In this document: positions 1 through 15,900 of the stretch, one piece after another
Layout of the letters: every line of letters begins with the position of its first letter
How positions within the stretch are numbered: the first letter of the stretch is position 1
Notes under the pieces: generated by a model
The model's database searches: none
What the model saw: the letters and a program-made list of their open reading frames with translations, nothing else
What the model was told of the DNA's origin: nothing
Origin: a virus
Taxonomy: Duplodnaviria; Heunggongvirae; Uroviricota; Caudoviricetes
IMG/VR virus record: IMGVR_UViG_2671180460_000010
Coordinates: 1 to 19,577 of that record
Reading direction: 5' to 3' (one strand)
Length of the DNA: 19,577 nt
Position numbers and translations under genes: made by a program

Positions 1-19
1 CTAATTGATAAATAAAAAT

Positions 20-1315
20 TTAATTTTGCATCGCTTCGTTATGGGGCATGGTTGGGGCAAACTCGCTTAACTGTGTATTTAACAGCGTTACCTGCGCATT
101 ATTATTTTCTGACATCCATTTCCCGTACACCTGAAACACCATTTGCGCATCTGCATGACCCATCTGGTTTGCAATGAATGCCGGGTTAGCTCCTGCTGTT
201 AACGACCAGCAGGCATAAGTGTGTCTCGACTGATACGATTTGCGATGGCGGATTCCGGCACGCTTTACCGCTGCGTCCCACATCTGCCTTATTGAGTCAA
301 CGGTAAAATGGTCACCATACTTTTTTACTTTCGCTGACACTTCAGGTTGAAAAACAAAGGTACATTTTTGTTTCTCTGTTCTGCCGAATTCTCTGAGGTG
401 AACATCGATGATATGCTCTTTGCTCAGTCTCGTTAGTGCCATCTGACTCCGAAGAGCGTCTATTGCTGGCTTAATAAGGTGAATCACACGATTGGTGCCT
501 GCCTGCGTTTTTGGTACTGTAAAACGGTCTTTTGCCAGGTTTCTTCTGATCATCATTGTTCCATTTTTCAGATCTATATCTTCCCATCCAAGCGCACATA
601 GTTCACCAGGGCGAATCCCCGTATAAACGGAAACACACCATAAATTTTTGGCTTGCTGATTTCTACACGCGTCAATAAGGCGGATAAACTCCTCCCGGGA
701 AAGTGGATCTGGGATGGTTCTCGACTCCTTTAATGGTGAGATCCCCTTAAATGGATTATCTGCCAGGTAACCGTTATCAACACCAAACTGGAACACGGCA
801 TAAAGATTTGTCATGTAATTATTTACGGTAACAGCCGATCTCCCCGGTTGTGTAACAATATAATTACTTTTGGGGATCTGGTATCCAGTAAGTAACTCTT
901 TACGTACCGCTAACAATTTTTCTTTATTAATCGACGAGGCAAGATTTTTTTCACCGATTATGCTTAAGACGTTTTTTATTACAGCACGGTATGTATTGAG
1001 TGACGTTCTGGCTACTTCAGTTTCTTTCAGTGCCAGAAATTTTTCAGCCAGTTCCTTTATGGTTAAATCTTGTCGGGCCTCACCAAATTTTTCCAGATTG
1101 TGTGAGGAGGGAAACTGTTTTGCATAGTCAAAAACGCCGGTTTTTATTGCGTAACAAACAGAGGCGCGCAACTCTCCTGCAATGCGTCTGTTTTTGGCTG
1201 TGTCAGGGACCCCAAGATTTTCCCTGACTCTTACGCCTCTATAAACAAACCAGATACGTAATTTCCCTCCATGGTTTTCCACGCCTGTCGGATATTTCAT
1301 TTCAGCTTCTCTCAT
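20..1315 (-). CDS. int: Phage tyrosine integrase (site-specific recombinase)
   Basis: 431-aa ORF. The C-terminal region has the tyrosine-recombinase box II pattern (RHTYA...GANPAFIANQMGHADAQMVFQVY) and an upstream conserved Arg context (TGIRPGEL). It sits at the prophage end directly downstream of an excisionase-like gene. The true start may be the internal Met (MKYPTG, 1300) rather than 1315. Confidence 0.9.
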   Translation of the reverse strand: MREAEMKYPTGVENHGGKLRIWFVYRGVRVRENLGVPDTAKNRRIAGELRASVCYAIKTGVFDYAKQFPSSHNLEKFGEARQDLTIKELAEKFLALKETEVARTSLNTYRAVIKNVLSIIGEKNLASSINKEKLLAVRKELLTGYQIPKSNYIVTQPGRSAVTVNNYMTNLYAVFQFGVDNGYLADNPFKGISPLKESRTIPDPLSREEFIRLIDACRNQQAKNLWCVSVYTGIRPGELCALGWEDIDLKNGTMMIRRNLAKDRFTVPKTQAGTNRVIHLIKPAIDALRSQMALTRLSKEHIIDVHLREFGRTEKQKCTFVFQPEVSAKVKKYGDHFTVDSIRQMWDAAVKRAGIRHRKSYQSRHTYACWSLTAGANPAFIANQMGHADAQMVFQVYGKWMSENNNAQVTLLNTQLSEFAPTMPHNEAMQN

Positions 1316-1335
1316 TGGTTAGTATTGTTTTTTAG

Positions 1336-1587
1336 TCAAGTAAGATGGCGTCTTGGTCTTGCCGATGCCTGGCGCTCAATCCAGCGGTCAATTTCTTCCA
1401 GGTTGTAAAAGCATGGGCTGTTATCCCATGGCATACCGTCATGAGCGACATGCTTATATTCCCTTCCTTCCATAAACGATTTTTCCCTGGCTTTTTTTAG
1501 AGTTCCCTTTTTTATTCCTTTCAGTGCAATTAGTTGCTCTTCGGATACCCATTTACCGGGATAGACAATCATGATTACTTCGCTCAT
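1336..1587 (-). CDS. xis: Excisionase-like protein (putative Xis / recombination directionality factor)
   Basis: 83-aa ORF immediately upstream of int on the same strand, 20-nt gap. Small basic protein; the resemblance to the DUF1233-type 'putative excisionase' family (KWVSEEQLIALKGIKKGTLKKAREKSFMEGREY) is recalled from memory, not searched. Confidence 0.65.
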   Translation of the reverse strand: MSEVIMIVYPGKWVSEEQLIALKGIKKGTLKKAREKSFMEGREYKHVAHDGMPWDNSPCFYNLEEIDRWIERQASARPRRHLT

Positions 1588-1657
1588 CGCTTTTTATCTC
1601 TTACATCAGATGAGCGCCGGTTGCAGAATACCAGTCACAACCGGCGATGGTTGAACA

Positions 1658-4114
1658 TTAAAAATCAGCCTGATTCGGGATCAGTTTTTGCCAGATAGCT
1701 GAAACGTATTTTGCCTGGTGGCGGGCATCATCCAGTGCATTATGGCGCTCACCTTCGAATGGAATAGCCGTTCTGGCATCGAAGTCTATAGCTTTCCCCA
1801 GCTCAACGATTGTGCGTACATCGCGATCGTTGTAGTAACGCCACGGGCAGGGGATCCCCTGCCGTTCGTATGAACGGCGCAAAATCGTGTTGTCGAAGTT
1901 GGCTCCATTTCCCCAGACCTGAACAAAAAATTCACCGGAGTTTTCGTCGATAAATTCTCGCAATTGTAACAGTGCATCATCTAACGGGATTTCATCGGTC
2001 ATAATGGCAGATTGCGCTTCGCGTGATTGCTTCAGCCACCATTTAATGGTGTCCCGATCAATGACTCCGCCAGCAGTTTCCAGATCGATAGTCTTACTAA
2101 ATTCCGGTCCCATATCTCCGGTTTGCGGATCGAAAAATATTGCACCTATTGAGATAATCGGGGCATCAGGATTTTTTCCCATGGTTTCGAGGTCGATCAT
2201 TAGATGGTCACACGTCCTGCTGGTGGATGTGATTTCGTGATGACCGTTCACCTTAATTGAGTGATCTGCCGCCTCGCCAGTTTCATTATCGCTGGCGTGG
2301 TCCTGAGCGCTGCCAGCATTCTCCTTGTGTGGATGTTCAGCGCCTTCCATTTCCTCCGGATCATTTTCCTGAACTTCAACCTGATTCTCTTCATCGAATG
2401 TTTCCAGGTATGTTGCGTCGCCCATCACCGCGCCACAATCAGGGAAGTTGCCGCTGCCGGTCTGACCGCAGACGGTGCAAGCTTTTTCCGGTTCCTGTTG
2501 CGCTGCTGGTTCATGTTGTTTCGTTTCTGGCTCGTTTTGTAACGCATTTGGGCTGTTTTGTTCCGCTTTCTGGTCGTTCTGTTCCGTTTCTTGCTGGTTC
2601 TGATTCACTGAATCGCGGGTTTCAATCCCCTTCACCCATTTCGGATCATTCGGGTCGCTAATCCCTGCAACAAATTCACCGCGAGAGGCCGCAAGCAACT
2701 TATCGGCGTCAGGCTGGCCGATATTGGCTGCCTGCATAATTTTGTTTACTTCGTCAGCGGTAACTTTCACCTGATTAACTGGATCTACCTGTTCCTGAGT
2801 ATCCAGCGATTGCGTGTCCTGGCGATGTTCAGTTGTATCCGGTTCCATTGTTTCAGCCGTTGCCTGTTCATCTGCCAGTACGCCAGACGGTTGCGGTTTT
2901 TCTTCATCATTTTTTTCTTCTTCTGTTTCTTGCCCGGCAGCCAGCTCGCGGTTAACTTCTTCCAGGATATCTTTTTCCGGTGTATGTCGTGCAGCAGTGA
3001 GAGTTTCCTTGCTGGGGTTCTCGTGATCAGTCTCCGTTAAGTAGGCGTTGATATACCCCTGAAGGCGTCCCGGGTAATGATAAAATTCAGGGTGTGCGCT
3101 CCGGATAAGCGCAAAAATAGCGGCGCGGGAATAATCCAGGATACCCGGGATTGCGCGAAGTGCTGCGGACCATTCTTTGAACGGGCTTTCTTTCTTCCGG
3201 ACGACTTCTTTTGCGCGACGATAAACGCTGCCCGGAATTTCATAAATATTAAAATCCATCGGAAGTGTGGCCGCTGCAATCTCCACATCCAGCGTATCGA
3301 AGGTGTGTACTAAATTAGGATTGCGATCGGTTTTGTTCCCTCCACCGGCATTAGCACCGGAAGCCGTGCGGGTAATGCGTGAAACACGATTTCCTTTCAT
3401 CCACTCTTTTGTCAGCAGACCGCGATCGGTGTAGTCAGCGCCCAGGTATGCTTCGAAAAAAGCAGTCATCAGTCCCAGGTCTGAATTACCAGGATTAGGG
3501 AAAACTTTGTCCGTGTCACGAACCAGTTTGTGGAGATCGCGAATTTCCAGCGGTTCGAGTTGCGCTGCTTTATTTGAGATGGCCAGAGCGGTAACGGCGG
3601 GAAGTTTTTCATCCTGTGCGTTATGTAATGCGCGCAGTTCGTCCCGCGAAACGTGTGTGATCGGTTTTTCGCTGCCGTGCTGTGCCAGCCATCGAACAGG
3701 CAGAATCTGACCTGAAACCGGCAGGAGCATGTTCTCCTCAATCTCCGTCATGTCTTCGCCGTTGACGTTGGTATTGTCAGTGCTGGCTGGTTTGTCCTGC
3801 GCAGAGTGAGAGGTCTCAATAAATACCATTGTTATACCATCTTCCCCGCCTTTTTCGTATCGATTGCAGAATTCGGTATCAAACACGCCTTCCGGAGGAA
3901 GGTCATTCACAATGGGTAAATGGACGCGAACAGGTTTTTTAAAATCCTCTTCGTCAAATCCGGCATCGTCCATTGCGACAACACCGCGTGATATTGCAAC
4001 CGATAATTTTTTTGCTGTGCGCCAGTAAAAACCGCCTTTAATCCCAAGGCGTTTTCTGACTTTGTCATTTTTGGCTTCGTAATATAGTGCAATTTCTTCT
4101 TTATCAGCGCTCAT
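1658..4114 (-). CDS. Large phage protein with C-terminal DnaQ-like DEDDh 3'-5' exonuclease domain (often annotated exodeoxyribonuclease VIII-like); long acidic/Gln-rich central linker
   Basis: 818-aa ORF with GAGG RBS 7 nt upstream of the ATG at 4114. The C-terminal ~180 aa carry Exo I (MIDLETMG), Exo II ([12 protein letters not shown]) and Exo III (HNALDDARH) motifs. The central ~250 aa are low-complexity E/Q/D/T-rich. Position matches the recombination-gene slot of lambdoid phages. Confidence 0.75.
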
Positions 4115-4191
4115 TGATAAACCTCGTAACTATTTTTAGGGTGAACAAATCCCTGCCATTTCTGACATATAAAAATGAAACCGGATATTAA

Positions 4192-4395
4192 TTACGGTGC
4201 TGTTTTAAGTCCTGCCGGGACTTCGTTATTATCCATGCGAATAACTTTATCGACCGGATAACAGTTACCGGGAATTTTCTGTTCATCTGCGGCAGCCATG
4301 CATTCTTTCATTGAGCTGTATACGCCAGTAACCATGTCAACTGGTTCACCGGAAACAAGAAAAACCGTCAGAACAAGTGCAAATGTGGTATTCAT
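4192..4395 (-). CDS. Small hypothetical protein with N-terminal signal-peptide-like hydrophobic segment
   Basis: Internal Met start (MNTTFALVLTVFLVSGEP...) preceded by AGGA. Its ATG overlaps the stop of the upstream gene in an ATGA arrangement (4392..4395), suggesting translational coupling. 67 aa with 3 Cys. Confidence 0.45.
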   Translation of the reverse strand: MNTTFALVLTVFLVSGEPVDMVTGVYSSMKECMAAADEQKIPGNCYPVDKVIRMDNNEVPAGLKTAP

Positions 4396-4580
4396 TGCCA
4401 GTATCCTTTTTGCATCAGGCGTGAACGGGCCATCATTGAAACAATGCAAACCTTATTTAATGAATCCGGCTCATGCTTTATCTGGTTAATGGCATCCTCA
4501 ATAAAAGTTTTATCGCCAGTGATAACGCCAATTTCAAAACGAGTTTCAGGCGTAGTGGAATTGAGTAATAACGTTTCCAT
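4392..4580 (-). CDS. Small hypothetical protein (62 aa)
   Basis: Start METLLLNSTTPETRFEIG with GAGGA RBS upstream; ATGA overlap with the next gene. One arm of a 19-bp inverted repeat lies just upstream of its RBS. Confidence 0.45.
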   Translation of the reverse strand: METLLLNSTTPETRFEIGVITGDKTFIEDAINQIKHEPDSLNKVCIVSMMARSRLMQKGYWQ

Positions 4581-5081
4581 TATCGCGTCCTCAACAATGA
4601 ATTTTGTGATGCGGTGCCTGGTGCCTCCAGGTGACGTTAACCAGTTAACAATTAACGCCGGATACAGGGAACCCATAAACACCCGATACGGGGGAACTAA
4701 TCGCTTTTTAACTGTTCCGCGTGCGCTGAGCCGCATTCACCGCATCACAAAATTCACTTTAAAAATGGCGGACATCAGCCAGCAATTAAACTGATGCCGC
4801 CAAAGGTCAATACTCAACATGGGTTGTTGCAGCGGGGTTGTCACTCAGGCGTATGGTCAACCTGACAACCCGGTGCTACCAATGGGGGTAAGGATAACCC
4901 CGCCATACTTACCGCCGCGCCATTTCGCGGATTGCCACAACCGGAAGCGCACGGTCGAAGAAATCTAACGACAAGCCTTCTAAGGAAAAGAAACCTTCGC
5001 TGTGCGCTTTCGTGTTGTGTGCCTGCTTTTAACCACATCAGGCGAGGTGGTTTCCGTCATTCCCCAACGACAAGAAATTTG

Positions 5082-5087
5082 TATAAT
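5082..5087 (+). promoter_or_regulatory. Candidate sigma70 -10 element (TG-adjacent TATAAT) for the 5119..5637 gene
   Basis: ttTGTATAATcc lies 31 nt upstream of the ATG at 5119. The -35 is weak (ttcccc region), consistent with an extended -10 type promoter. Confidence 0.4.
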
Positions 5088-5118
5088 CCGGATACCCCAA
5101 CAACAAAGAGAGTTAAGA

Positions 5119-5637
5119 ATGCTATCTGGAATAACTTCATCAATAACGGCAATTAAAGTCTCGATTGATTTATTACAGGTAATACTTGATGCAAAAAGCC
5201 AATCTGAACGTGAAAAGGCTGTCTACGAAATGCGTCGCCAACTGGCAGACTTACAAATACAGAACGCAGAGCTAGCGAAAACGCTCGCGCTTCAGTACGA
5301 GGAAATACTCTTGCTTAAGCAAAAATGTCATGAAATTGACGAGCGTAATCGAAAACTTGAATGCTATACGATACACAAAACTGGTTTTGGGCATTTTGTC
5401 TATGCTTTCAGGAACAGCCTCGACGAAGAAGACACATGTTTTCACTATGCCTGTCCCAATTGCTATCAGCATGGTGTAATAGCAATACTTCAACCTGTTG
5501 AAATTGGTGAGCATGATAAGTTCCATATTTCTAAATGCCTGAAATGTGATTCGCGCTTTAAATTTGAACGCAATGATGACTATATACCGCCCCCATCTGA
5601 AGAAGAGATAGGTAGAGCATTGAGCAGCAATCCGTAG
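5119..5637 (+). CDS. Hypothetical coiled-coil protein with C-terminal CxxC...CxxC zinc-ribbon-like motif (172 aa)
   Basis: Start at internal Met (MLSGITSS) with GAGAG RBS. Predicted heptad-rich central segment (QLADLQIQNAELAKTLALQYEEILLLKQKCHEIDERNRKLE). C-terminus has CPNC...(22 aa)...CLKC. Opposite strand to all neighbours, with its own promoter. Confidence 0.6.
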   Translation: MLSGITSSITAIKVSIDLLQVILDAKSQSEREKAVYEMRRQLADLQIQNAELAKTLALQYEEILLLKQKCHEIDERNRKLECYTIHKTGFGHFVYAFRNSLDEEDTCFHYACPNCYQHGVIAILQPVEIGEHDKFHISKCLKCDSRFKFERNDDYIPPPSEEEIGRALSSNP

Positions 5638-5799
5638 GTTATTGCTGTTGTGGATATCCAGATTGTTAAAGAGCATGCCGGAAGGTTATCCGTGTCCGGC
5701 GCACGACCACACGTAGCAGCGTGTTGGTCTCCATTTTTAATTCACCCCTTAATGGAGGATAAAATAATCGTGGTGCTGGTCGGCTCGGTCCCGCAGGTG

Positions 5800-6447
5800 T
5801 TACCCTTTAAACCAGTCAATCCAGAGCGGATAGTGTTCAGCATAAATATAGCTATACACATCCAGGTTGTATTTGCGGTCTGTCCTTAGCAGGTCGCAAA
5901 TACAGGCCGCAGCTTCCAGGGCAGCAGCTTTGTTGCTGAATAACCATGTAGCAACATTCCGGCGATTATCTGTATCCCACTCTTTTGTGAGGGCTGACAC
6001 CACGAAGGAGCCGTTGGTGTTGCCATCAAATACTTCCGTTTCCAGATTTTTAAGTAATGCCTGGTGAATTTTTGCCAGGTATTCAGTCGGAATTTCGCCA
6101 CGAATTCGGATAAGGTTGTCATAAACAAACATGTTCCCCGCATATGGCGATTTTTCTTTCTTTTGTTCACTGGCAGGCTGGTCAATTTCGTCTTCGGTTG
6201 GTTTCGTATTGATGTTTTGCGTTATCGTTTCTGCAATGGGCTTTGCTTTATTTTCTACACAATGATTGTTTGTGAACGAATCTGAATACAGTCCGGTAAA
6301 AGAATTGCGGACATGATTTGATAAATTTCTGATGAACACTTTATCTACTAATATCATTGGGTTCCGCGCCAGTTGCGAGCGAATCACATCAGCGGCCATT
6401 TCCTGTATTGAAATTGGTAAATCTTTAAATTCCATAGTCAACCTCAT
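5800..6447 (-). CDS. Hypothetical protein (215 aa), second gene of the leftward early operon
   Basis: Long ORF with GAGG RBS. Start is 6447 (MRLT) or 6435 (MEFKDL). No motif I can assign to a known family. Confidence 0.6.
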   Translation of the reverse strand: MRLTMEFKDLPISIQEMAADVIRSQLARNPMILVDKVFIRNLSNHVRNSFTGLYSDSFTNNHCVENKAKPIAETITQNINTKPTEDEIDQPASEQKKEKSPYAGNMFVYDNLIRIRGEIPTEYLAKIHQALLKNLETEVFDGNTNGSFVVSALTKEWDTDNRRNVATWLFSNKAAALEAAACICDLLRTDRKYNLDVYSYIYAEHYPLWIDWFKG

Positions 6448-6459
6448 CAGTCGGTGGTT

Positions 6460-6666
6460 TTAAATCACTCGCGAAACGTTTAATGCCGCGCTTTTTGCCA
6501 GAGCGGTAATATCCTGCGTCACTGACGCCAGTGTTTCAGAGAGGCGCTCTTTGTGATCAGTGGCCTGCTTCAGGTCATTAATGGCGCGTATCTTCCCGCG
6601 CATCCACTCATAAAGTTCATCATCGGTATAGCCTGGCGCGATGATGACGGGTTCTCGTTTCTGCAT
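6460..6666 (-). CDS. Hypothetical protein (68 aa), first gene downstream of the pL-like promoter
   Basis: ORF 12 nt upstream of the 215-aa gene on the same strand, about 180 nt downstream of a strong leftward promoter. Not Arg-rich, so not an obvious lambda N-type antiterminator. Confidence 0.5.
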   Translation of the reverse strand: MQKREPVIIAPGYTDDELYEWMRGKIRAINDLKQATDHKERLSETLASVTQDITALAKSAALNVSRVI

Positions 6667-6854
6667 GCTGATTCCTCTCAGTGCTGTTTCCCCTTAACGC
6701 CGGGGTAGCGGAACAAAAACCTGCTGCATAGTTAAAGTTGAACCCTGCCGTCATGTTCATACGCCTCGGGCTGGCTACTTAACCCCTGACCACTGCCTGG
6801 TAACTCGAAGTATTGCCCTGCGTTCTGTGGGATGGGGTGGGTTGGCATGGGAAA

Positions 6855-6898
6855 ACTATAGGTAATGCCTAATTATTTGTCAATAGGCTATGCCTAAT
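6855..6898 (-). promoter_or_regulatory. pL-like early-left promoter with overlapping operator half-sites (OL-like)
   Basis: On the minus strand: TTGACA (plus coords 6878..6883), 17-nt spacer, TATAGT (6855..6860). The -35 is embedded in ATTAGGCatagcctATT, and further GCCTAAT half-sites occur at about 6864..6876 and 6913..6925. Confidence 0.55.
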
Positions 6899-6991
6899 GA
6901 TTTAAGGGCAACCTAATAGGTGATGGTGTGTGGGAGAGGTAGTAGGAGTTAACTAACGGGATCTAGGAATTTCCCGTCGGACCATATAAGT

Positions 6992-7468
6992 TTAAGTACC
7001 TGTCTTGGTGATATTCTGGCTTTTCCGTTTTGATTCTTGATTTTTCAAATAGTTACCTACCTTCATTTCCATTGCGGCAATGTAGGCGCGAACGTCATGA
7101 TCAACCCAACTAGGCTCCGTAGCATTTCCAGATAAGAGGAAAGCTACAATTGCTCTTTTTTCATCAGAGGCGGCTTGATAAAGGCTGTTTATGTCTAAGA
7201 GTTCACTTTTTGTATCTGAAGTGGATGGGGTTGGTATGGGGTATTCGTTAAGCCCCCAATGCTCTGGACCAACCACATCAGAAAAGAAACGCCATAGTTC
7301 TGGAAGTTTGTCTTTACTTATCGAACCTTTCTTAATCCAGTCATGGATTGATGGTGGTTGGACTTTGAAATGACGTGCGATCTCCGCCTTTGATTTGACG
7401 GCCCCTGATGCAATTTTTTTGTTAATGGCCTGCTCTATCGCTCGGCCTAAGTCTTTACCACTAAGCAT
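6992..7468 (-). CDS. Prophage repressor, HTH (XRE-like) family, RacR-like; no C-terminal S24 peptidase domain evident
   Basis: 158-aa ORF with GGAGA RBS. N-terminal HTH-like segment (KSKAEIARHFKVQPPSIHDWIKKG). Sits between mirrored promoters/operators and is divergent from a Cro-like gene. Size and arrangement match the Rac racR-ydaS-ydaT layout. Confidence 0.7.
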   Translation of the reverse strand: MLSGKDLGRAIEQAINKKIASGAVKSKAEIARHFKVQPPSIHDWIKKGSISKDKLPELWRFFSDVVGPEHWGLNEYPIPTPSTSDTKSELLDINSLYQAASDEKRAIVAFLLSGNATEPSWVDHDVRAYIAAMEMKVGNYLKNQESKRKSQNITKTGT

Positions 7469-7520
7469 TGCTTAATAGTCTCCTATGCGTATCGCGTTAG
7501 GCAATCCCTATCTTTAATGT

Positions 7521-7570
7521 ATTAGGCATAGCCTATTGACAATGATATTAGGCGCAGCCTAATATCATTG
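7521..7570 (+). promoter_or_regulatory. pR-like early-right promoter with operator palindromes (OR-like)
   Basis: -35 TTGACA (7536..7541), 18-nt spacer, -10 TAATAT (7560..7565). A 31-bp perfect palindrome CAATGATATTAGGC-gca-GCCTAATATCATTG (7540..7570) overlaps the promoter. A second site ATTAGGCatagcctATTGACAA (7521..7542) is the exact reverse complement of 6877..6898. Confidence 0.6.
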
Positions 7571-7592
7571 TGTGTTTTTTGGAGTTCACTCG

Positions 7593-7916
7593 ATGAAAAA
7601 AGAGAACTATTCATTCAAACGAGCTTGTGCTGTTGTCGGTGGGCAATCAGCAATGGCTAGGCTTTTAGGTGTATCACCTCCAAGCGTAAATCAATGGATC
7701 AAAGGTGTACGTCAGTTACCTGCTGAGAGATGTCCTGCGATTGAACGAGCAACAAAAGGTGGTGTCCTGTGTGAAGAACTTCGTCCTGATGTTGATTGGT
7801 CATACTTACGACGCTCGTCATGTTATTCGCAGAATATGTCGATGAAGCAACCAAATGACGAAAACGATCATACCCGAAGCATCAAGAGGCAAATGATTCA
7901 TGAAAATCAAGCATGA
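7593..7916 (+). CDS. ydaS: Cro-like HTH regulator, YdaS family
   Basis: Start at ATG 7593 with GGAG RBS. HTH signature (ACAVVGGQSAMARLLGVSPPSVNQWIKGVRQLP). Divergent from the repressor, and its stop overlaps the start of the next gene. Confidence 0.8.
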   Translation: MKKENYSFKRACAVVGGQSAMARLLGVSPPSVNQWIKGVRQLPAERCPAIERATKGGVLCEELRPDVDWSYLRRSSCYSQNMSMKQPNDENDHTRSIKRQMIHENQA

Positions 7917-8325
7917 ACACATCCGCATGGCGATGAATGCCTGGGCACATCTGAACGGTGAAAAAGTTCCGGCTGCGAAAATTACCAAAGCGTATTTCGA
8001 ACTGGGTATGACGTTCCCGGAACTGTACGACGACAGCCATCCGGAAGCCCTGGGCCGTAACACCCAGAAAATTTTCCGCTGGGTGGAGAAAGACACTCCT
8101 GATGCGGTTAAAAAAATTCAGGCGTTGTTACCAGCGATCGAAAAAGCGATGCCGCCTCCGCTGGTGGCCCGAATGCGCAGCCACAGTTCCGCTTATTTTC
8201 GGGAGTTGGTAGAGACGAAGGAACGGCTGGTGAAAGATATTGATGATTTCGTTGCATCAGCGATCGTTCTGTTCGATCAGATGAATCGTGGTGGCCCGGC
8301 AGGAAACACTCTGGCTGTGCATTAA
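7900..8325 (+). CDS. ydaT: YdaT-family protein (CII-like / putative toxin of the debated YdaS-YdaT pair)
   Basis: 141-aa ORF starting MKIKHEHI, overlapping the YdaS-like gene by 17 nt. Same position as ydaT in Rac-type immunity regions. Confidence 0.7.
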   Translation: MKIKHEHIRMAMNAWAHLNGEKVPAAKITKAYFELGMTFPELYDDSHPEALGRNTQKIFRWVEKDTPDAVKKIQALLPAIEKAMPPPLVARMRSHSSAYFRELVETKERLVKDIDDFVASAIVLFDQMNRGGPAGNTLAVH

Positions 8326-8338
8326 TTGGGTAATAAAT

Positions 8339-8848
8339 ATGAGTAATGACAAAAAATTGACACTGAGCGTTTACGAAAACAGTCCGCACATCTGGCGTGG
8401 CGGTTTATCTGATGTGGAGCTGGCAGAGTGGTTGATACATAAAGCTAATGCGCTGCTCTGGCGTTTGTCAGCCAGAGAGCAGCGCAAGGAAACCAGAATA
8501 AAGCTGGCTGATGCAGAAGCGTGTGCCGGGCTTATTGAGGATTATACAAATCTTGGTATTTCTTCAGCAGAGAGTGATCCCATTCAGCCTCTGAGCAGGG
8601 AGTCAATCCAGCACGCTGGTTGTATGGCACATCTTGTAACTGCTCGTCAACATGAGGTGGGTATTGGATCACTTCCGGTGGGATATTCGCTGATTACAGA
8701 GCTGGTTGAAGCAAGAAAATCAGTTCAGAAAAAGAGAGATGACGCACTTCAATTATTGAGAGAGCACTATGGCGCGATACCAGAATGCGAACAGCGTCGA
8801 TACCCTGAAGGTTATGAATGGATGCAGTCTCTTTTTGAAGCTCGCTAA
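8339..8848 (+). CDS. Hypothetical protein (169 aa)
   Basis: ORF starting at internal Met (MSNDKKLTLSV) immediately after the YdaT-like gene, in the early-right operon. No assignable motif. Confidence 0.55.
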   Translation: MSNDKKLTLSVYENSPHIWRGGLSDVELAEWLIHKANALLWRLSAREQRKETRIKLADAEACAGLIEDYTNLGISSAESDPIQPLSRESIQHAGCMAHLVTARQHEVGIGSLPVGYSLITELVEARKSVQKKRDDALQLLREHYGAIPECEQRRYPEGYEWMQSLFEAR

Positions 8849-9065
8849 TCAATATGTCGAGACGAAGGTATGTTTCGGCGCGCAGCCAGGCTCTGTAATC
8901 CGGGAGCATTTCGGGGCTGTTACACCAGCGGTTTGTTGCTGCAACATTTAATACGTGAGCCTGATAAAGGCTTTTCAAAAAATACATGTCGAACCTCCTC
9001 TGGTTCTGTCGATTGGGAACCACAGATTATATCCGGAGGAAGGTTCGGCACCAGATGAGGTAGCC

Positions 9066-10175
9066 ATGCGTGATTACGCAAAAGTTTCTCCGCGATTCTG
9101 GCTGGGAGAAACGGGGAGAGAACTTAGAAAGGCGGGTGCAGAAGCGCAAGTTGTTGCTTTTTACCTGATGACATCCCCTCACGCAAATATGCTGGGTTTG
9201 TATTACCTGCCAGTTTTATACCTTGCTCATGAAACCGGGCTTGGTCTGGAAGGGGCTTCAAAGGGGCTTAAAAGGGCTGTTGAAGCTGGTTTTTGTAGCT
9301 ATGACCATGATGCCGAGATGGTCTGGGTCCATGAAATGGCAGCCTGGCAGGTTGGGGAAACGTTGAAGCCTGGCGATAACCGTTGTGCAGGTGTCAGGAA
9401 TGAGTATGCATCATTACCTGAAAACGCTTTTCTGTCAGCGTTTTACGACAGATATAAAACGGATTTCCATCTGGATGTGAGGCGGAATAATAGCCGAAAT
9501 TCGGTAAGGGGCTTCGAAGGGGCTTTTAAGGGGCTTCGAAGCCAAGAACAGGAGCAGGAGAAAGAACAGGAACAGGACAAAAACACTATAGCTCATGGCG
9601 AAAAAAACACCACGAACCAGGCAGGGGATGTTCAGACCGTAAATTCTGGTCAGCCAGCAGGCACGACACCGGAAGCCGATTCGGCGTATGCGCTGAAAGC
9701 CGATTCGGGCGCTGTGCAGCAGGTGATGACCGCAGGGTCGGAGCAATCACACCAACTGCAGCAGCCTGAAGCCGATTCCGCCATTCAGCGGGAAGCCGAT
9801 CGGGTAGTCCCGGAAAACACCGGGCGGCCTGTGGGACGAGTGGATTATCCGGATGTGTTCGAACAGGTCTGGCGGGAATACCCGTTGCGTGCCGGGGCAA
9901 ACCCGAAGAAATCCGCATTCAGTGCCTGGAAGGCCAGATTGCGCGAGGGGGTGCCACCAGAGACCATGCTGGATGGTGTGAGGCGTTACGCGAGATACCT
10001 GGCGGCGACCGGGAAAGCGGGAACGGAATTTGTTCAGCGAGCGACGACGTTTTTTGGACCGGACCGGAATTTTGAAAACCCCTGGTTGCTCCCGGTAAGC
10101 GGCACGAACAACCAGCGTTGCGTGAATCACATTTCTGAACCGGATACCGAAATTCCGCCGGGGTTCAGGGGGTAA
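9066..10175 (+). CDS. Replication initiation protein (lambda O-like / replisome organiser) with internal iterons
   Basis: Long ORF directly upstream of a DnaC-like gene with a 6-nt gap. ATG at 9066 has a GAGG RBS; an in-frame GTG at 8955 is an alternative start. The coding sequence contains two clusters of 11-bp-phased AAGGGGCTT repeats and an A-rich tract, as in lambdoid O genes that contain ori. Confidence 0.6.
   Translation: MRDYAKVSPRFWLGETGRELRKAGAEAQVVAFYLMTSPHANMLGLYYLPVLYLAHETGLGLEGASKGLKRAVEAGFCSYDHDAEMVWVHEMAAWQVGETLKPGDNRCAGVRNEYASLPENAFLSAFYDRYKTDFHLDVRRNNSRNSVRGFEGAFKGLRSQEQEQEKEQEQDKNTIAHGEKNTTNQAGDVQTVNSGQPAGTTPEADSAYALKADSGAVQQVMTAGSEQSHQLQQPEADSAIQREADRVVPENTGRPVGRVDYPDVFEQVWREYPLRAGANPKKSAFSAWKARLREGVPPETMLDGVRRYARYLAATGKAGTEFVQRATTFFGPDRNFENPWLLPVSGTNNQRCVNHISEPDTEIPPGFRG
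9250..9620. repeat. Putative replication origin: iteron clusters (AAGGGGCTT x3 at 9250..9279 and x3 at 9506..9540, 11-bp phasing) plus A-rich tract (9545..9620)
   Basis: Direct reading. Repeats start at 9250, 9261 and roughly 9271, and at 9506, 9517 and 9528. They are followed by caggagcaggagaaagaacaggaacaggacaaaaacac...aaaaaaacacc. Confidence 0.4.
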
Positions 10176-10181
10176 CGGGTT

Positions 10182-10928
10182 ATGAAAAATATTGCGGCAG
10201 GTGGTGTTCTTGAACGCATCCGTAAGCTGGCCCCGCAGCATGTAACCGCGCCGTACCGGACAGTGGACGAGTGGCGAGAGTGGCAGCTTGCAGAAGGGCG
10301 AAAGCGTAGTGAGGAAATTAACCGCCAGAATCGCCAGATCCGGGTGGAGAAAATTATGAAGCGTTCCGGTATCCAACTGTTGCACCAGAAGTGTTCGTTT
10401 GCGAATTACCAGGTGAAGAACGACGGGCAACGATACGCGTTGAGCCAGGCGAAATCTATCGCCGATGAACTGATGACCGGATGCACAAATTTCGTGTTCA
10501 GCGGTAAGCCGGGTACCGGAAAGAACCACCTTGCAGCTGCCATTGGTAATCATCTTCTGACGAAAGGTCACAGCGTGATAGTGATAACGGTGGCAGATGT
10601 GATGCTGGCGTTACACGGCAGCTACGACAACAAGAACTCGGGCGAAAAATTTTTGCAGGGGTTGTGTGACGTCGATCTGCTGGTTCTGGATGAAATTGGT
10701 ATGCAGCGGGATACGCGCAATGAGCAGGTTACGCTGAACCAGATAGTCGATCGCAGAACGGCCTCGATGCGTAGTGTCGGAATGCTGACAAATCTGAACC
10801 ACACGGCAATGAGCGCCCTTTTAGGCGAACGGGTGATGGACCGCATGACCATGAACGGTGGTCGCTGGGTGAATTTTAACTGGGAGAGCTGGCGTTCAAA
10901 TGTCAGCCATTTAAGGGTTGTGAAGTAA
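10182..10928 (+). CDS. DnaC-like replicative helicase loader (IstB-like AAA+ ATPase)
   Basis: Walker A (FSGKPGTGKNHLAAA) and Walker B (LLVLDEIG) motifs. Tightly follows the O-like gene. 248 aa. Confidence 0.9.
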   Translation: MKNIAAGGVLERIRKLAPQHVTAPYRTVDEWREWQLAEGRKRSEEINRQNRQIRVEKIMKRSGIQLLHQKCSFANYQVKNDGQRYALSQAKSIADELMTGCTNFVFSGKPGTGKNHLAAAIGNHLLTKGHSVIVITVADVMLALHGSYDNKNSGEKFLQGLCDVDLLVLDEIGMQRDTRNEQVTLNQIVDRRTASMRSVGMLTNLNHTAMSALLGERVMDRMTMNGGRWVNFNWESWRSNVSHLRVVK

Positions 10929-10942
10929 TTTCAGGAGGACTC

Positions 10943-11335
10943 ATGGCAAGCGTTTTTACACCCGAACAGCGGGAAGAACTGAAGGCACGAATTATCGGGC
11001 TGATACACAGGAACAAACGCATGACGATGTCGCAACTGGAGAGGGAAACGGGGGCGGGCTGGCATACGGTCAGACGTTGTCTTGTGGATGTGGTTGCTTG
11101 TGGTGATTTGTACATATCCGGTAAACACGGTGTTTTTGTATCAGAACAGGCGTATCAGGCGTGGTGTAAAACTCCGAAGAAAGCTGACCCGGCACTGGTC
11201 CGGAAGTTACCTGATGGTGAAATCCGTCGCTACGACAGAGACATGAACATAATTTGCCGGGAATGCCGTAACAGCGAATCAATGCAACGTGTACTGGCGT
11301 TCTATCGGGGTAATTTTCAGGAGGTGATGGAGTGA
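10943..11335 (+). CDS. Hypothetical protein with N-terminal winged-helix-like segment (130 aa)
   Basis: ORF with AGGAGG RBS (tttcaggaggactcATG). Possible HTH at MSQLERETGAGWHTVRRCL. Its stop overlaps the next gene's start (GTGA). Confidence 0.6.
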   Translation: MASVFTPEQREELKARIIGLIHRNKRMTMSQLERETGAGWHTVRRCLVDVVACGDLYISGKHGVFVSEQAYQAWCKTPKKADPALVRKLPDGEIRRYDRDMNIICRECRNSESMQRVLAFYRGNFQEVME

Positions 11336-11628
11336 GGGCGAGGGTTTATATCGCCGGTCCAATGACGGGCTATGAAAATTTCAACCGTGAAGCATTTCAC
11401 AGGGCGGAAGAGGAACTGAAACGGGAAGGGCATACCGTCTTAAACCCGGCAGTACTTCCGGACGGACTGACTCAGTCGCAGTACATGGATATCTGCATGG
11501 CGATGATACGTTGCGTGGATGCGATTTACATGCTGAATGGCTGGCAGCGGTCGGCGGGTGCCAGGGCAGAACTGGCGCTGGCGGAGAAGCTGGGGCATGC
11601 AGTTATTTTCCAGGAGGAGGTACAGTGA
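11332..11628 (+). CDS. DUF4406-like protein (nucleoside 2-deoxyribosyltransferase-like fold)
   Basis: GTG start with AGGAGG RBS 8 nt upstream. N-terminal VYIAGPMTG motif typical of this family. 98 aa. Confidence 0.65.
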   Translation: MRARVYIAGPMTGYENFNREAFHRAEEELKREGHTVLNPAVLPDGLTQSQYMDICMAMIRCVDAIYMLNGWQRSAGARAELALAEKLGHAVIFQEEVQ

Positions 11629-11909
11629 ATATCGACGCAACAATGACGATTGGTACGGCCCTCAATACGGGGCTGGCGCTTCTTGGTTGGTGCTACGTCA
11701 TGTTCTGCTCATGGCGGTGGCTGTCACTGATGTTACTGAAAAAATGGAATAAACGCTGTAAACAGACGCAGCGGCAGAAGGCAATGAATGCGTTTGTTGA
11801 GACCTTCGATATTGACAGTATGGAACCAGGAGAGCCAGCTCGCGTGATTAGCAGAGGTGACGTTGTAATTCTTGTATACCGGAGTGAAGAGAAAAATGAG
11901 CGAAATTAA
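11625..11909 (+). CDS. Small hypothetical membrane protein (94 aa)
   Basis: GTG start overlapping the upstream stop (GTGA), with AGGAGGAGG RBS. One strongly hydrophobic segment (TIGTALNTGLALLGWCYVMFCSWRWLSLMLL). An alternative ATG start lies at 11640. Confidence 0.45.
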   Translation: MNIDATMTIGTALNTGLALLGWCYVMFCSWRWLSLMLLKKWNKRCKQTQRQKAMNAFVETFDIDSMEPGEPARVISRGDVVILVYRSEEKNERN

Positions 11910-12052
11910 CTATCAGGCACTGCGTGAAGAAGAGAAAGCATAATCCAAATCTGAATAATTAAATTCAGCACTGTAAATAAAACTTAATCCTTAACCGGAG
12001 GGATTTCTGCACCCTCAGAACATCAGGAGGCCGCCCGAAAGGGTGGTAATGA

Positions 12053-12271
12053 ATGGTCACATTATTTAGAAAAAAATATCCGCGAAGGAGTAGAACAACA
12101 GAATTTTTGTTTCTCATTCTGTTTATCGTATTGATGATACCGATATCCCCGCTAATTTTTGTCTGGGCAATCGGGAAAATAATTGAGCCAGTTATTGAAT
12201 TGTATAACGACGTGGTGTGGGCGTCGTTCAACACACTGCACAATAAAATTAATCCGTATAAGGAAAGCTGA
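12053..12271 (+). CDS. Small hypothetical membrane protein (72 aa) in AT-rich segment
   Basis: ORF with GGTGG-type RBS. Hydrophobic core (FLFLILFIVLMIPISPLIFVWAIG). Its stop lies 1 nt before the HNH gene start. Confidence 0.35.
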   Translation: MVTLFRKKYPRRSRTTEFLFLILFIVLMIPISPLIFVWAIGKIIEPVIELYNDVVWASFNTLHNKINPYKES

Positions 12272-12272
12272 T

Positions 12273-12638
12273 ATGGCACTGACGAAAAAACAACGTGCAG
12301 AGCTGCGCATGAAGTTCGGCGGTCGCTGTGCTTATTGCGGCTGCGAACTTGGCGAAAAGTGGCATGCAGACCATGTAAAACCGGTCATTCGTTTTGATGG
12401 AAATATGCTTCACCAGGAACGTGACGATATATCCAACATGGTTCCGGCATGCCACCCATGCAATCTGCACAAGCATTGCAGTAGTCTGGAAGATTATCGG
12501 CGAATTATCAGTGATGGTCGTCGTGAATTCCTTGCGTCCGGGAAAGGCAAAGCGCTGGTTCGTATGGGATTGGTTGAAATGAAATCTGACCCGGTTGTGT
12601 TCTGGTTTGAAAAATATCAAGAAGGGGCTACGGCATGA
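12273..12638 (+). CDS. HNH endonuclease
   Basis: Start at ATG 12273 with AAGGAAAG RBS. Cys/His HNH pattern: CAYCGC...WHADHVKP...NMVPACHPCNLHK. Confidence 0.8.
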   Translation: MALTKKQRAELRMKFGGRCAYCGCELGEKWHADHVKPVIRFDGNMLHQERDDISNMVPACHPCNLHKHCSSLEDYRRIISDGRREFLASGKGKALVRMGLVEMKSDPVVFWFEKYQEGATA

Positions 12639-13033
12639 CCACTTTTACCAATAGCAAACTAACAGACGAATACGTTTCAAATGCAACGTTGATTCGGCTC
12701 ATTCTGTGGGCTGACCAGCACAATAGCCATTATGTTGTAGCGGCTCTGCGCGAGCTACAGGAGCGCCGCAAGGCTGATAGTGTGTCTGTAGAAATCAACG
12801 ACGACATGGCTTACGCATTCCATCATGCACTGTCAGACTCATCTCCAGGTGCTGATGAGGTAGAGGAAATTAAGGCCGGGTTGCGTGCTGCCTTTGCCAA
12901 TGTCACTGTCCAGCCGGTGCTGATAGTGCCGGATGAAATGGATTTGCTTACCTGCCATCTCGACGGTGTAACTGAAACATATGCTGATGGCTGGAACGCC
13001 TGCCGCGCCACCATGCTTAAGGGAGATAAATAA
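12635..13033 (+). CDS. Hypothetical protein (132 aa)
   Basis: ORF in the operon, overlapping the HNH stop by 4 nt. No assignable motif. Confidence 0.55.
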   Translation: MTTFTNSKLTDEYVSNATLIRLILWADQHNSHYVVAALRELQERRKADSVSVEINDDMAYAFHHALSDSSPGADEVEEIKAGLRAAFANVTVQPVLIVPDEMDLLTCHLDGVTETYADGWNACRATMLKGDK

Positions 13034-13617
13034 TGATTAATCGAACCAAACTGGAACACATTCTCGAATATGCCAGGCAGCAGAAATGTATTGGGCAACT
13101 TTGTAAAATTCCACCAGGAGATATGGTTGAAATCGTGGAAATGGCCATGCGTAAGGCTGGCAACTCTCCGGTAACTCCGGCTCGCCTGCCTGGCGGTTTC
13201 ACCATTGAGGATGCGAAGGAGTTACATGAAGACCTGGTACGCAGCCACATAAGCCAGGCTTTAAGTTGTGAGAGGATGAAAAAGAACGATCGCGATGCTG
13301 ATTTGCGCTGGATTCATGGCGTTATAGTTCAGGCCGCGTGGTTTGTAAAAGCGTCACTGGAGCAGAATGCGCTAACGGGCAACTCTCCGGTAACACCGGC
13401 TGACTGGATAAGCTGTAGTGAGCGAATGCCTGAAAAGAACCAGAACGTGCTTATTTCGGTGAATTTCGATAGCTCTCTGGTTGAACCGCTAATATGCTCC
13501 GCACGCTATACAGGAAGCACATTCCGGCGAGGAGAAGCAACGATTAAGCCGGGTAATGGTATTGAGCAGGCAACTCACTGGATGCCGCTACCGGAGCCAC
13601 CGCAGGAGGTGAACTGA
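13033..13617 (+). CDS. DUF551-like phage protein with internal GNSPVTPA repeat
   Basis: C-terminal HWMPLPEPP motif characteristic of DUF551. A 24-nt near-exact direct repeat within the gene encodes GNSPVTPA twice. Confidence 0.65.
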   Translation: MINRTKLEHILEYARQQKCIGQLCKIPPGDMVEIVEMAMRKAGNSPVTPARLPGGFTIEDAKELHEDLVRSHISQALSCERMKKNDRDADLRWIHGVIVQAAWFVKASLEQNALTGNSPVTPADWISCSERMPEKNQNVLISVNFDSSLVEPLICSARYTGSTFRRGEATIKPGNGIEQATHWMPLPEPPQEVN

Positions 13618-14012
13618 TGAAAAATGAAGTCGACAATGTTATCACCCTTGTACAGCCAAAATCAGAGGAGGAAGGACTCCTCAACGTTGTGATAACCGAC
13701 AGAAAAAGCGTCGAGCAAAAATGCTGTCAGCATTTCCGTACAACAATTTCAGAAGTGAATCGTACGATTACCTGCAAACGGTGTGGATTGGCTTTAGATC
13801 CGTTTGAACTTGTTCTCGACCGTGCGAGAAACGGTGAAAACATCGTGTCAGAGATTAAATCACTCTATACAAAGCGGGATGCTCTTCGTGAAGCTGTGGC
13901 AAAACTTGAACGTGAAGAGAAAAACGCCAAAGCGCGGTTACGAGCAGTCAGGACAGCAATACTGTATGCGGAAAATGACCTTAAAAATATTGAGCAGGAG
14001 GTGAATCGATGA
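13617..14012 (+). CDS. Hypothetical protein with Cys-rich N-terminal half and coiled-coil-like C-terminus (131 aa)
   Basis: ORF with ATGA overlap to the upstream gene. KCCQHF...TCKRCG motif; Lys/Glu/Arg-rich C-terminal helix. Confidence 0.55.
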   Translation: MKNEVDNVITLVQPKSEEEGLLNVVITDRKSVEQKCCQHFRTTISEVNRTITCKRCGLALDPFELVLDRARNGENIVSEIKSLYTKRDALREAVAKLEREEKNAKARLRAVRTAILYAENDLKNIEQEVNR

Positions 14013-14086
14013 CCGAAGCATTCACAACGGCAGGAATTGCGATGGCGGTGGCGCTGGTGGTGTATTCGATTTGCCGCTGGGGATAA
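14009..14086 (+). CDS. Possible 25-aa hydrophobic peptide (MTEAFTTAGIAMAVALVVYSICRWG)
   Basis: ATGA-coupled to the upstream gene, AGGAGG 6 to 7 nt upstream, and followed immediately by a terminator. Too short for confident calling. Confidence 0.3.
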   Translation: MTEAFTTAGIAMAVALVVYSICRWG

Positions 14087-14092
14087 CAAACA

Positions 14093-14122
14093 AAAACCCC
14101 GGATTGACGGTCCGGGGTTTTT
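14093..14122 (+). terminator. Rho-independent terminator ending the nin-like operon
   Basis: CCCCGGA-ttgacgg-TCCGGGG stem-loop followed by TTTTT. Confidence 0.7.
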
Positions 14123-14344
14123 GAAGGAAACAAACAGAAACAACAATTGCCGTTATCTGTTGCCACCAATGACAAGTAAACGTATCTCAGGCGAGCGCAT
14201 TGCGCCGTTCTGACGCGGATACATTAGCCTGGGCAGAAGGTTCTGGCAATAAAAAATAGCGTTTTCTTATCGGTGTCGGTAAGATTGTTGCGGGTGCTTG
14301 AGGCTGTCTGCCTCGGGCATGCCACTGTAAGGCAGACAGAGAAA

Positions 14345-14447
14345 AGCCCCAGTTAACATCACGCGTCCTGCAAGACGCTTAACATTAATCTGAGGCTCAA
14401 TCCATGCTGAACACATGTAGGTTAGCCTCTTACGTGCCGAAAGGCAA
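14345..14447 (-). ncRNA. Putative Sok-like antisense RNA and its promoter (type I antitoxin)
   Basis: Minus-strand promoter: -35 TTGCCT (plus coords 14442..14447), 17-nt spacer, -10 TAACCT (14419..14424). The architecture mirrors the R1 sok promoter, which sits antisense to the hok leader. The 3' end is not defined. Confidence 0.35.
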
Positions 14448-14460
14448 GGAGAAGCAGGCT

Positions 14461-14616
14461 ATGAAGCAGCAAAAGGCGATGTTAATCGCCCTGATCGTCA
14501 TCTGTTTAACCGTCATAGTGACGGCACTGGTAACGAGGAAAGACCTCTGCGAGGTACGAATCCGAACCGGCCAGACGGAGGTCGCTGTCTTCACAGCTTA
14601 CGAATCTGAGGAGTAA
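14461..14616 (+). CDS. hok: Hok/Gef-family type I toxin (51 aa)
   Basis: MKQQKAMLIALIVICLTVIVTALVTRKDLCEVRIRTGQTEVAVFTAYESEE is a near-match to the Hok/Gef family (HokD/RelF-like). The leader GGTGCTTGAGGCTGTCTGCC...AAGGAGAAG parallels the hok mRNA fold-back elements. The in-frame upstream extension from 14404 may correspond to a mok-like translational coupling frame. Confidence 0.85.
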   Translation: MKQQKAMLIALIVICLTVIVTALVTRKDLCEVRIRTGQTEVAVFTAYESEE

Positions 14617-14687
14617 GAGACCTGGCGGGGGGATTTTTATCCCCCGCCACCTCTGATGTGTCAGGCATCCTCAACGCACCCGCACTT

Positions 14688-14710
14688 AACCCGCTTCGGC
14701 GGGTTTTTTC
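14688..14710 (+). terminator. Rho-independent terminator at the 3' end of the hok transcript
   Basis: CCCGC-ttcg-GCGGG followed by TTTTTT. A GGCGGGGGGA/TCCCCCGCC hairpin precedes it at 14624..14648. Confidence 0.7.
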
Positions 14711-14746
14711 ACGTACTGTGGTTGTGAATACGATTGGTATTAGGCT

Positions 14747-14765
14747 ATGCTAACAACATTAGCAT
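14747..14765. promoter_or_regulatory. Operator-like perfect inverted repeat ATGCTAA-caaca-TTAGCAT upstream of the antitoxin/Doc pair
   Basis: Direct reading; lies about 60 nt upstream of the small ORF at 14828, near TTGTGA/TATGCT and TTGACT promoter-like hexamers. Confidence 0.4.
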
Positions 14766-14827
14766 GACTAATTTTGTATTGACTTAATTTTTGTTAAAGA
14801 ACAGGACGGAGAAGTAAGGGTACACCA

Positions 14828-15007: not shown

Positions 15008-15025
15008 TGATAGGTATTGTGCTCT

Positions 15026-15511: not shown

Positions 15512-15525
15512 AGATGCTTCTAATG

Positions 15526-15555
15526 AAAACCCGCTTTGGCGGGTTTTGTTTTTTC
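15526..15555 (+). terminator. Rho-independent terminator after the Doc-like gene
   Basis: AAAACCCGC-tttg-GCGGGTTTT followed by GTTTTTTC. Confidence 0.75.
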
Positions 15556-15626
15556 TGCGTATTCTGGTTTACAATTTGCACGCCAGCCTGAACAACTGGC
15601 ACCTGCTGCGCCAGCAGAGAAAACCG

Positions 15627-15899: not shown

Positions 15900-15900
15900 C

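Follow-up and report, generated by a model that had tools for sequence, protein, structure and literature searches.

In Rac, a prophage carried by Escherichia coli K-12, the repressor RacR acts on the intergenic region between its own gene, racR, and the divergent gene ydaS. Here we analyzed a related locus in a 19,577-nucleotide (nt) stretch of DNA from a Caudoviricetes virus (IMG/VR record IMGVR_UViG_2671180460_000010, positions 1 to 19,577), which we call the window. The locus consists of a racR gene with mirrored promoter and operator sequences on its two sides. In K-12, Krishnamurthi et al. (PMC5700373) described three GCCTAA/TTAGGC repeats in the 123-base-pair (bp) racR-ydaS intergenic region. 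They detected RacR binding by electrophoretic mobility shift assay, with three complexes, and by chromatin immunoprecipitation, and a ydaS reporter was repressed. The ydaS promoter (P_ydaS) was mapped by primer extension and possesses a perfect TTGACA -35 hexamer and a TAATAT -10 hexamer, mutation of which abolishes the activity (PMC9638921, Nucleic Acids Research 2022). DNase I footprints in the same study gave ATTAGGC as the site of the RacR monomer and (T/A)TAGGC-n3-GCCTA(T/A) as the inverted repeats. Among these, O1 on P_ydaS was protected at the lowest RacR concentration, and O3 lies over the racR ATG. The same group reported four inverted repeats and, by size exclusion, a RacR octamer (PMC11014345).

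When RacR is depleted, xisR and intR increase about 100-fold (PMC11014345), and ydaG, ydaF, kilR and racC are induced 40-70-fold (PMC6765115). The RacR papers call xis and int 'far away' from racR, and no binding site is named for the leftward effect. Footprints of YdaT were obtained at P_ydaS and at the start of ydaT, where the protected box is ATGATT-N6-AATCAA (PMC11879457), and K-12 YdaS represses its own synthesis and competes with RacR. Leftward promoters (P_L) have been described in other prophages. In CP-933P, P_L has -35 and -10 hexamers identical to those of the rightward promoter (P_R) and its own operator set (PMC8630535). The Qin prophage has the same design of P_L and left operators (O_L) (PMC10448788).

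Promoter and operator sequences on the two sides of racR

The 158-amino-acid (aa) product of the open reading frame (ORF) between the mirrored sequences scored 246.5 bits against the NCBIfam equivalog NF049929 (curated cut-off, 200) and is thus a RacR ortholog. It is 92% identical to K-12 RacR. No match was obtained in a Pfam search of the protein, and the family was identified via NCBIfam. In a consensus scan of positions 6400-8000, exactly two promoter-like sites were found, P_L and P_R. When up to three mismatches were allowed, the motif ATTAGGC-N3-GCCTAAT occurred at five sites in the 19.6-kb window, every one of them within 6857-7563. The mean of the shuffled sequences was 0.72, and none of 200 shuffles reached five. 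We therefore consider it highly probable that this region serves a Rac-type lambdoid prophage as its immunity switch, in which racR is placed between two outward early promoters carrying RacR operators. The coordinates of the features are given in Table 1.

Table 1. Promoters, operators and genes of the racR region, with positions in the window (a dot marks features without strand).
Feature	Position	Strand	Description	Basis
P_L -10 TATAGT	6855..6860	-	invariant in 28 unique E. coli-type sequences	promoter scan, 11/12
O_L1, RacR operator-like (TATAGGTAATGCCTAAT)	6857..6873	.	3 mismatches; fills P_L spacer, overlaps -10	motif search
P_L -35 TTGACA	6878..6883	-	abuts O_L2; invariant or nearly so	promoter scan
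O_L2, RacR operator-like (AATAGGCTATGCCTAAT)	6882..6898	.	1 mismatch; with the -35 forms the 22-bp block 6877-6898	motif search, conservation
O_L3-like site	6901..6917	.	conserved part is only the half-site AACCTAAT(AGG), 6910-6917	direct repeat D4 with O1
racR	6992..7468	-	158-aa repressor	NCBIfam equivalog match; 92% identity to K-12 RacR; RefSeq homolog annotation
Operator over racR start codon, published O3 (ACTAAGCATTGCTTAAT)	7460..7476	.	3 mismatches; spacer has CAT, the ATG	motif search, PMC9638921
Weak operator (GTTAGGCAATCCCTATC)	7496..7512	.	4 mismatches; over racR promoter region	seen in sequence
O_R2 (ATTAGGCATAGCCTATT)	7521..7537	.	1 mismatch; abuts P_R -35; belongs to the 22-bp block 7521-7542	motif search
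P_R (P_ydaST) -35 TTGACA	7536..7541	+	homologous K-12 promoter mapped by primer extension	consensus scan, PMC9638921
33-bp inverted repeat, 15+3+15	7539..7571	.	arms 7539-7553 and 7557-7571, spacer GCA; O1 with 8-bp symmetric flanks
O_R1, published O1 (ATTAGGCGCAGCCTAAT)	7547..7563	.	0 mismatches; between -35 and -10, overlaps -10	motif search
P_R -10 TAATAT	7560..7565	+	K-12 promoter abolished by -10 substitution	consensus scan
ydaS	7593..7916	+	Cro-like, 107 aa; Shine-Dalgarno GGAG 7581-7584	Pfam
YdaT-box (ATGATTCATGAAAATCAA)	7893..7910	.	over ydaT start codon	letters unchanged from the K-12 box footprinted in PMC11879457
ydaT	7900..8325	+	CII-like, 141 aa	Pfam YdaT_toxin, 1.3e-9

Right-hand side: P_R has the hexamers of P_ydaST, TTGACA and TAATAT, at a spacing of 18 nt (10/12 consensus match). 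The racR-ydaS intergenic region contains the (T/A)TAGGC-n3-GCCTA(T/A) repeats at the K-12 positions, one of them on P_ydaS and one on the racR ATG. The latter is centered on the ATG in every homolog locus. The K-12 site homologous to the weak operator at 7496-7512 has three mismatches; it falls within the DNA that RacR protects and counts among the 'four inverted repeats' (PMC9638921, PMC11014345). In the E. coli type the four right-hand sites lie at +0, +36, +61 and +87 from the racR ATG, whereas the distant lineages (L007, L008 and L010-L013) have three, at +0, +35 and +60. The extra fourth site is the one identical to the block of O_L2 and the -35. This identity hints at an old copy event, which may have been either the duplication of 25-26 bp in ancient times or copying from the left side. 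Binding of RacR and repression of P_ydaS have been shown by others for the K-12 right-hand side; for the window, the evidence is homology, positions, conservation and statistics.

Left-hand side: On the minus strand, P_L consists of TTGACA (6883-6878), a 17-nt spacer and TATAGT (6860-6855), with an 11/12 consensus match. The whole block reads ATTAGGCATAGCCTA-TTGACA-AATA-ATTAGGCATTACC-TATAGT. O_L2 adjoins the -35, and O_L1 extends over the spacer and the -10, which is the same arrangement as that of O_R2 and O_R1 on P_R. For conservation, 92 loci were fetched via RacR, which gave 28 unique left-hand and 43 unique right-hand sequences of the E. coli type. In both sets the operator half-sites and the -35 and -10 hexamers were invariant or nearly so, and the linkers varied freely. 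In the O_L3-like site, one half is invariant and the other is variable. Paired left sites 25 bp apart, at about 580-620 bp from the racR ATG, recurred beside RacR homologs of Mixta (64% identity), a proteobacterial metagenome-assembled genome (MAG; 58%) and Proteus (61%). The promoters there are TTGACA or TTGACT, 17 nt and TAATAT, with the -35 abutting O_L2; in Mixta and Proteus this TAATAT stands at the position of the TATAGT of P_L. O_L1 was kept 25 bp from O_L2 in all lineages with the left set. RacR residues ~39-73, a span that includes the predicted recognition helix (helix assignment from PMC11014345), are almost invariant across these homologs. Thus, at the sequence level, the repressor gene stands between two divergent early promoters, each under at least two operators of the same type, as in the bipartite lambdoid design. 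We infer that P_L is active and that RacR binds O_L.

Mirror block: Reverse complementing the segment 6877-6898 (TTGTCAATAGGCTATGCCTAAT) gives 7521-7542 without a mismatch, and the exact identity ends at those bases on both sides. When mismatches were allowed, the repeat grew to 29 nt at 90%. The 22 nt are the maximum for an exact non-overlapping inverted repeat in the window, and the longest perfect hairpin arm is 15 nt; the corresponding values never exceeded 16 and 13 in 60 dinucleotide shuffles. The identity of the two blocks is an outcome of shared function and no special device, because the same module, a 17-bp operator with an overlapping consensus -35, serves both promoters. Only the 3-nt operator spacer and the last base of the block are free of half-site or -35 constraint. 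Ongoing gene conversion between the two blocks was considered and rejected, since their operator spacers drift independently (ATA versus ACA in K-12, and other variants).

These results bear out most of the original prediction, which had been made from the sequence alone. It had proposed a RacR-like repressor, a perfect TTGACA at both promoters and the mirrored 22-bp block, all of which were recovered; the block proved to be the longest exact inverted repeat in the window. Its half-site, ATTAGGC-N3-GCCTAAT, equals the published motif (PMC9638921, PMC5700373). It had also placed RacR operators over both promoters. The right-hand sites are homologous to the K-12 footprints, and the left-hand sites are supported by conservation. 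The prediction is less novel than it implied, because most of it is already published or belongs to the standard lambdoid plan. The half-site, P_R and the right-hand operators were known from K-12, the mirror plan is textbook, and the window carries a new allele of a known system. The left set, namely O_L1, O_L2 and the half-site over TTGACA-17-TATAGT, is possibly a new part. We found no description of a Rac-type left operator in the accessible literature, which leaves out part of the older Rac work, and none of the accessible RacR papers deals with the DNA downstream of racR. The left operator is nevertheless a predictable analogue of a known design. It would link RacR directly to the silencing of the leftward operon, with its kil-type genes, recombination genes, xis and int, and would thus explain the RacR dependence of these genes.

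According to the proposed mechanism, P_R would drive ydaS, ydaT and the replication genes rightward, and P_L the early operon that leads leftward to the exonuclease, xis and int. At each promoter, one 17-bp RacR operator abuts and slightly overlaps the -35, and a second occupies the spacer and reaches into the -10. In the lysogen, RacR dimers on O_R1 and O_R2 and on O_L1 and O_L2 would exclude RNA polymerase and shut both promoters. The sites at 7496-7512 and over the start of the leaderless racR would limit racR itself (autoregulation). When RacR drops, P_R would yield the Cro-like YdaS and the CII-like YdaT, and P_L the leftward operon through xis and int. The RacR octamer could also bridge O_L and O_R, which are about 640-690 bp apart, into a loop of about 0.65 kb around racR. 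Such bridging could be an alternative to the published arrangement, in which four dimers all sit within the intergenic region.

Several points weigh against this two-sided switch. For P_L activity and RacR binding at O_L, the evidence consists of sequence and conservation. In K-12, the leftward de-repression could in principle be indirect, via YdaS or YdaT. O_L1 has three mismatches because it doubles as the -10, and therefore its affinity may be low. Furthermore, no left set was found within 1.5 kb of the RacR homologs that share only the N-terminal part (Achromobacter, Nitrosomonas, Klebsiella and Aeromonas). Thus, the two-sided design is not universal.

Two regions adjoining the promoters were also noted. 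The P_L leader (6667-6848, minus strand; about 165-180 nt) has a C-rich 5′ end (CCAACCCACCCCATCCCACAG) and is kept ahead of three or more first genes that are unrelated to each other. Matches to its core (6689-6845) were found in more than 4,000 E. coli genomes of any immunity type. The leader had no Rfam match, and the RNAalifold support was weak (covariation term -0.57, two compensatory pairs). An antitermination or termination element of the nut, put or rut kind is one possible reading of the leader; a mosaic joint is another. A 38-aa ORF in this leader (6732-6848, minus strand) looks leaderless, with its ATG (6846-6848) exactly 7 nt past the P_L -10. This candidate was rejected: the look is probably due to chance, because the codon is ATA in most relatives, K-12 included. 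In the racR promoter region (7469-7490), the K-12 -10 GAGAAT (PMC9638921) reads GAGACT in the window and in most E. coli-type variants (TAATAGTCTCC versus TAATATTCTCC in K-12). Since the -10 differs, the autoregulated expression of racR may differ between alleles.

Alternative readings of the palindrome and the left block

At P_R, a perfect 14+3+14 palindrome had been predicted at 7540-7570. The palindrome is real but was given too short; the actual repeat is 15+3+15 and encloses the predicted one. Its left flank, ACAATGAT, is made of the -35 end and promoter spacer, and its right flank, ATCATTGT, runs from the -10 end to about +1. To survey this symmetry, 214 loci, including those from a DNA-pattern scan, were pooled and reduced to 90 distinct 1-kb contexts. 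The flanks were perfectly symmetric in 10 of the 90 contexts and in 7 of 36 P_R haplotypes. In the other haplotypes two to six of the eight flank positions match, and seven matches were never sampled.

It is conceivable that the 33-bp repeat across the P_R core is a selected functional element, which would act as an extended symmetric contact for a regulator or as a supercoil-dependent cruciform gating the promoter. The perfect flanks occur in two co-varying forms, GAT..ATC (ACAATGAT..ATCATTGT) and AAT..ATT (ACAATAAT..ATTATTGT), on four O1 spacers, and permutation of the 25 distinct flank pairs gave P = 0.018. With the missing 7/8 intermediates, this favors selection. In addition, the A:T and G:C forms alternate inside the palindrome clade, and the symmetry has therefore survived two or more coordinated double changes in this lineage. 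Among the six operator sites in the window, O1 alone has symmetric flanks. However, the perfect state is rare, and just 13 of the 5,426 complete E. coli genomes contain a close match to the window haplotype. Only three of the eight flank positions match in the commonest haplotypes and in K-12, yet repression works in K-12 and O1 has the highest affinity there. No residue of RacR, YdaS or YdaT separates the perfect from the imperfect loci, and identical YdaS and YdaT occur with both states. Thus, a tie of the palindrome to an allele of one of these proteins was rejected. In the racR tree, the perfect state corresponds approximately to one clade, which includes the window, and one outlier (L092), with a Fitch minimum of three changes; independent events in the sample are therefore few. 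Quasi-palindrome template-switch mutation perfects imperfect inverted repeats in multi-base steps without selection. This process would also account for the missing intermediates. On balance, we regard a selected element as unlikely.

We conclude that the 33-bp symmetry is a dispensable, lineage-specific extension of O1 and is not needed for the switch. The extension may be a product of either weak selection or quasi-palindrome template switching. The original prediction had counted the palindrome with the operators in the design that defines immunity. The palindrome belongs to a minority lineage and does not define the system. A still more elaborate possibility, which we find improbable, is that the perfect repeat, from the -35 end to +1, is actively kept symmetric as a structural switch that tunes P_R apart from the 17-bp operator, in combination with an octamer loop of about 0.65 kb. 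If this were true, the Rac-type switch would be mechanistically richer than a plain lambda analogue. A YdaT site in the palindrome flanks was also considered. ATGATA..TATCAT is similar to the ATGATT half-site, but its halves are separated by N15 instead of N6, the alternative AAT/ATT form matches worse, and the YdaT alleles do not track the palindrome. This candidate was rejected.

As for the left block, it might contain no active promoter and instead provide auxiliary operators for looping with O_R, or be a relic of duplication or gene conversion. The octameric state of RacR in solution (PMC11014345) would suit looping, and the fourth O_R site of E. coli, the extra one relative to the three of distant lineages, is compatible with past copying. 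In contrast, the left hexamers are kept at 17-bp spacing across lineages, even where the -10 differs (TATAGT versus TAATAT). The independent drift of the 3-nt spacers argues against ongoing conversion, and RacR depletion in K-12 strongly de-represses the genes that lie downstream of this block. An inactive left block is thus very improbable, and we favor an active P_L under RacR operators.

The reading of the hairpin at 7539-7571 and the following T-run (GTGTTTTTTG) as an intrinsic terminator on the plus strand is scarcely credible and was rejected: although the pattern matches (15-bp stem, 3-nt loop and T-run) and the RNA fold is stable (-23.8 kcal/mol, z = -4.3), the stem covers the spacer and -10 of P_R and thus lies upstream of where P_R is expected to start (~7572) and outside the ydaS messenger RNA. 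No plus-strand gene or promoter is known upstream, where racR takes up the space on the other strand. Only 5 of the 15 pairs are G-C, and the T-run is a ydaS leader kept in all relatives, most of which, including K-12, lack the stem extension that places the hairpin beside it.

Neighboring genes and spread of the module

The window contains the early region of a Rac-type lambdoid prophage. This follows from the RacR equivalog, the YdaS and YdaT families, the flanking genes, the annotation of homologs and the module of an isolated phage. YdaS matched Pfam YdaS_toxin (3.5e-30; 104 bits, cut-off 30) and P22_Cro (1e-8). YdaT matched YdaT_toxin with 38.8 bits (cut-off 21), so that divergent ydaS and ydaT stand beside racR. 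The ATGATT-N6-AATCAA box was found over the ydaT start. Replication genes lie to the right of ydaT, and small early genes, a RecE-like exonuclease and an integrase lie to the left of racR. In RefSeq, the homologous E. coli loci carry the labels racR, ydaS and ydaT, and the isolated phage vB_EcoS-683R6 has the same RacR-type module.

For ydaS, the program-made ORF list gave a GTG start at 7572 (114 aa); the conserved start is the ATG at 7593 after the GGAG (107 aa). In vB_EcoS-683R6 (L214, ON470595, 2788-4129), the racR homolog is labeled 'Rac prophage repressor', the ydaT homolog 'activator protein cII' and the ydaS homolog 'repressor protein cI'. The last label is misleading for a Cro-like protein. 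Elsewhere in the prophage, a sok antitoxin RNA of a hok/sok-type module was found at 14292-14466 on the plus strand (Rfam RF01794; 114 bits, gathering score 59).

A comparison of the half-site with related prophages, as the original prediction had proposed, showed that the operator and the helix-turn-helix (HTH) module are kept in Escherichia, Proteus, Mixta, Achromobacter and Nitrosomonas; this defines a broad immunity group. In Achromobacter (L011, L013), a Nitrosomonas MAG (L012), an Aeromonas MAG (L014) and Klebsiella (L009), the homologs share only the N-terminal DNA-binding domain of RacR (65-78% identity over ~77-93 residues) or are shorter than RacR. These loci keep TTAGGC-N3-GCCTAA operators, one of them over the start codon. 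Thus, the HTH and operator module has spread far outside Enterobacterales, joined to different C-termini. One further locus, L005, is on a 5.2-kb contig (JARKOR010000130.1) of a 'Candidatus Nanosynbacter' MAG. Its racR-ydaS is K-12-like, its P_R haplotype is that of K-12 in both flanks and O1, and its 165-nt region differs from K-12 at few linker bases. L005 is most likely a binning contamination by E. coli DNA.

Comparison with known systems

The results leave the understanding of lambdoid switches unchanged. What they provide is an annotation transferable to RacR-type loci, consisting of the promoters, six operator-like sites with a conserved half-site, and the YdaT-box.

Compared with K-12 Rac, the window has a 92% identical RacR and the same half-site, P_R hexamers, operator on the racR ATG and YdaT-box. 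The site positions from the ATG (+0, +36, +61 and +87) and the left-hand sites are also shared. The window allele differs in its perfect O1 with symmetric 8-bp flanks and in its ydaT allele, and the match to K-12 stops near the ydaT start. YdaS has 107 aa in the window and 98 aa in K-12, and the first leftward gene is different. The published K-12 work covers the racR-ydaS intergenic region only, and not the left set.

As in lambda (O_L and O_R with CI, Cro and CII), the repressor gene lies between divergent early promoters. In each of them, one operator sits at the -35 and another covers the spacer and the -10, with 25-26 bp between operator centers. Further shared features are a leaderless repressor transcript, a repressor that is octameric in solution (K-12 RacR), and Cro-like and CII-like genes after P_R. 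In contrast to lambda, RacR has an unrelated C-terminal domain and lacks the LexA-like domain for self-cleavage (PMC11014345). The operators differ in sequence, and an extra operator lies over the repressor start codon. The distance between O_L and O_R is about 0.65 kb here and 2.3 kb in lambda, and K-12 YdaS reportedly does not repress racR (PMC9638921).

CP-933P of E. coli O157:H7 (PaaR2/YdaS/YdaT; P_L933P with O_L1-3) shares the homologous ydaS/ydaT module. However, its repressor belongs to the PaaR2 family, its operators are palindromes of the GTTTAGTAA type, and the repressor shares its transcript with a toxin-antitoxin pair. The Qin prophage (DicA/DicC) has operators on both sides of the repressor gene, with dicBp resembling P_L and dicCp resembling P_R (PMC10448788). 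The P_L leader and the ydfABC-type leftward genes of Qin are common to many RacR-type loci, whereas the DicA repressor and its operators are different.

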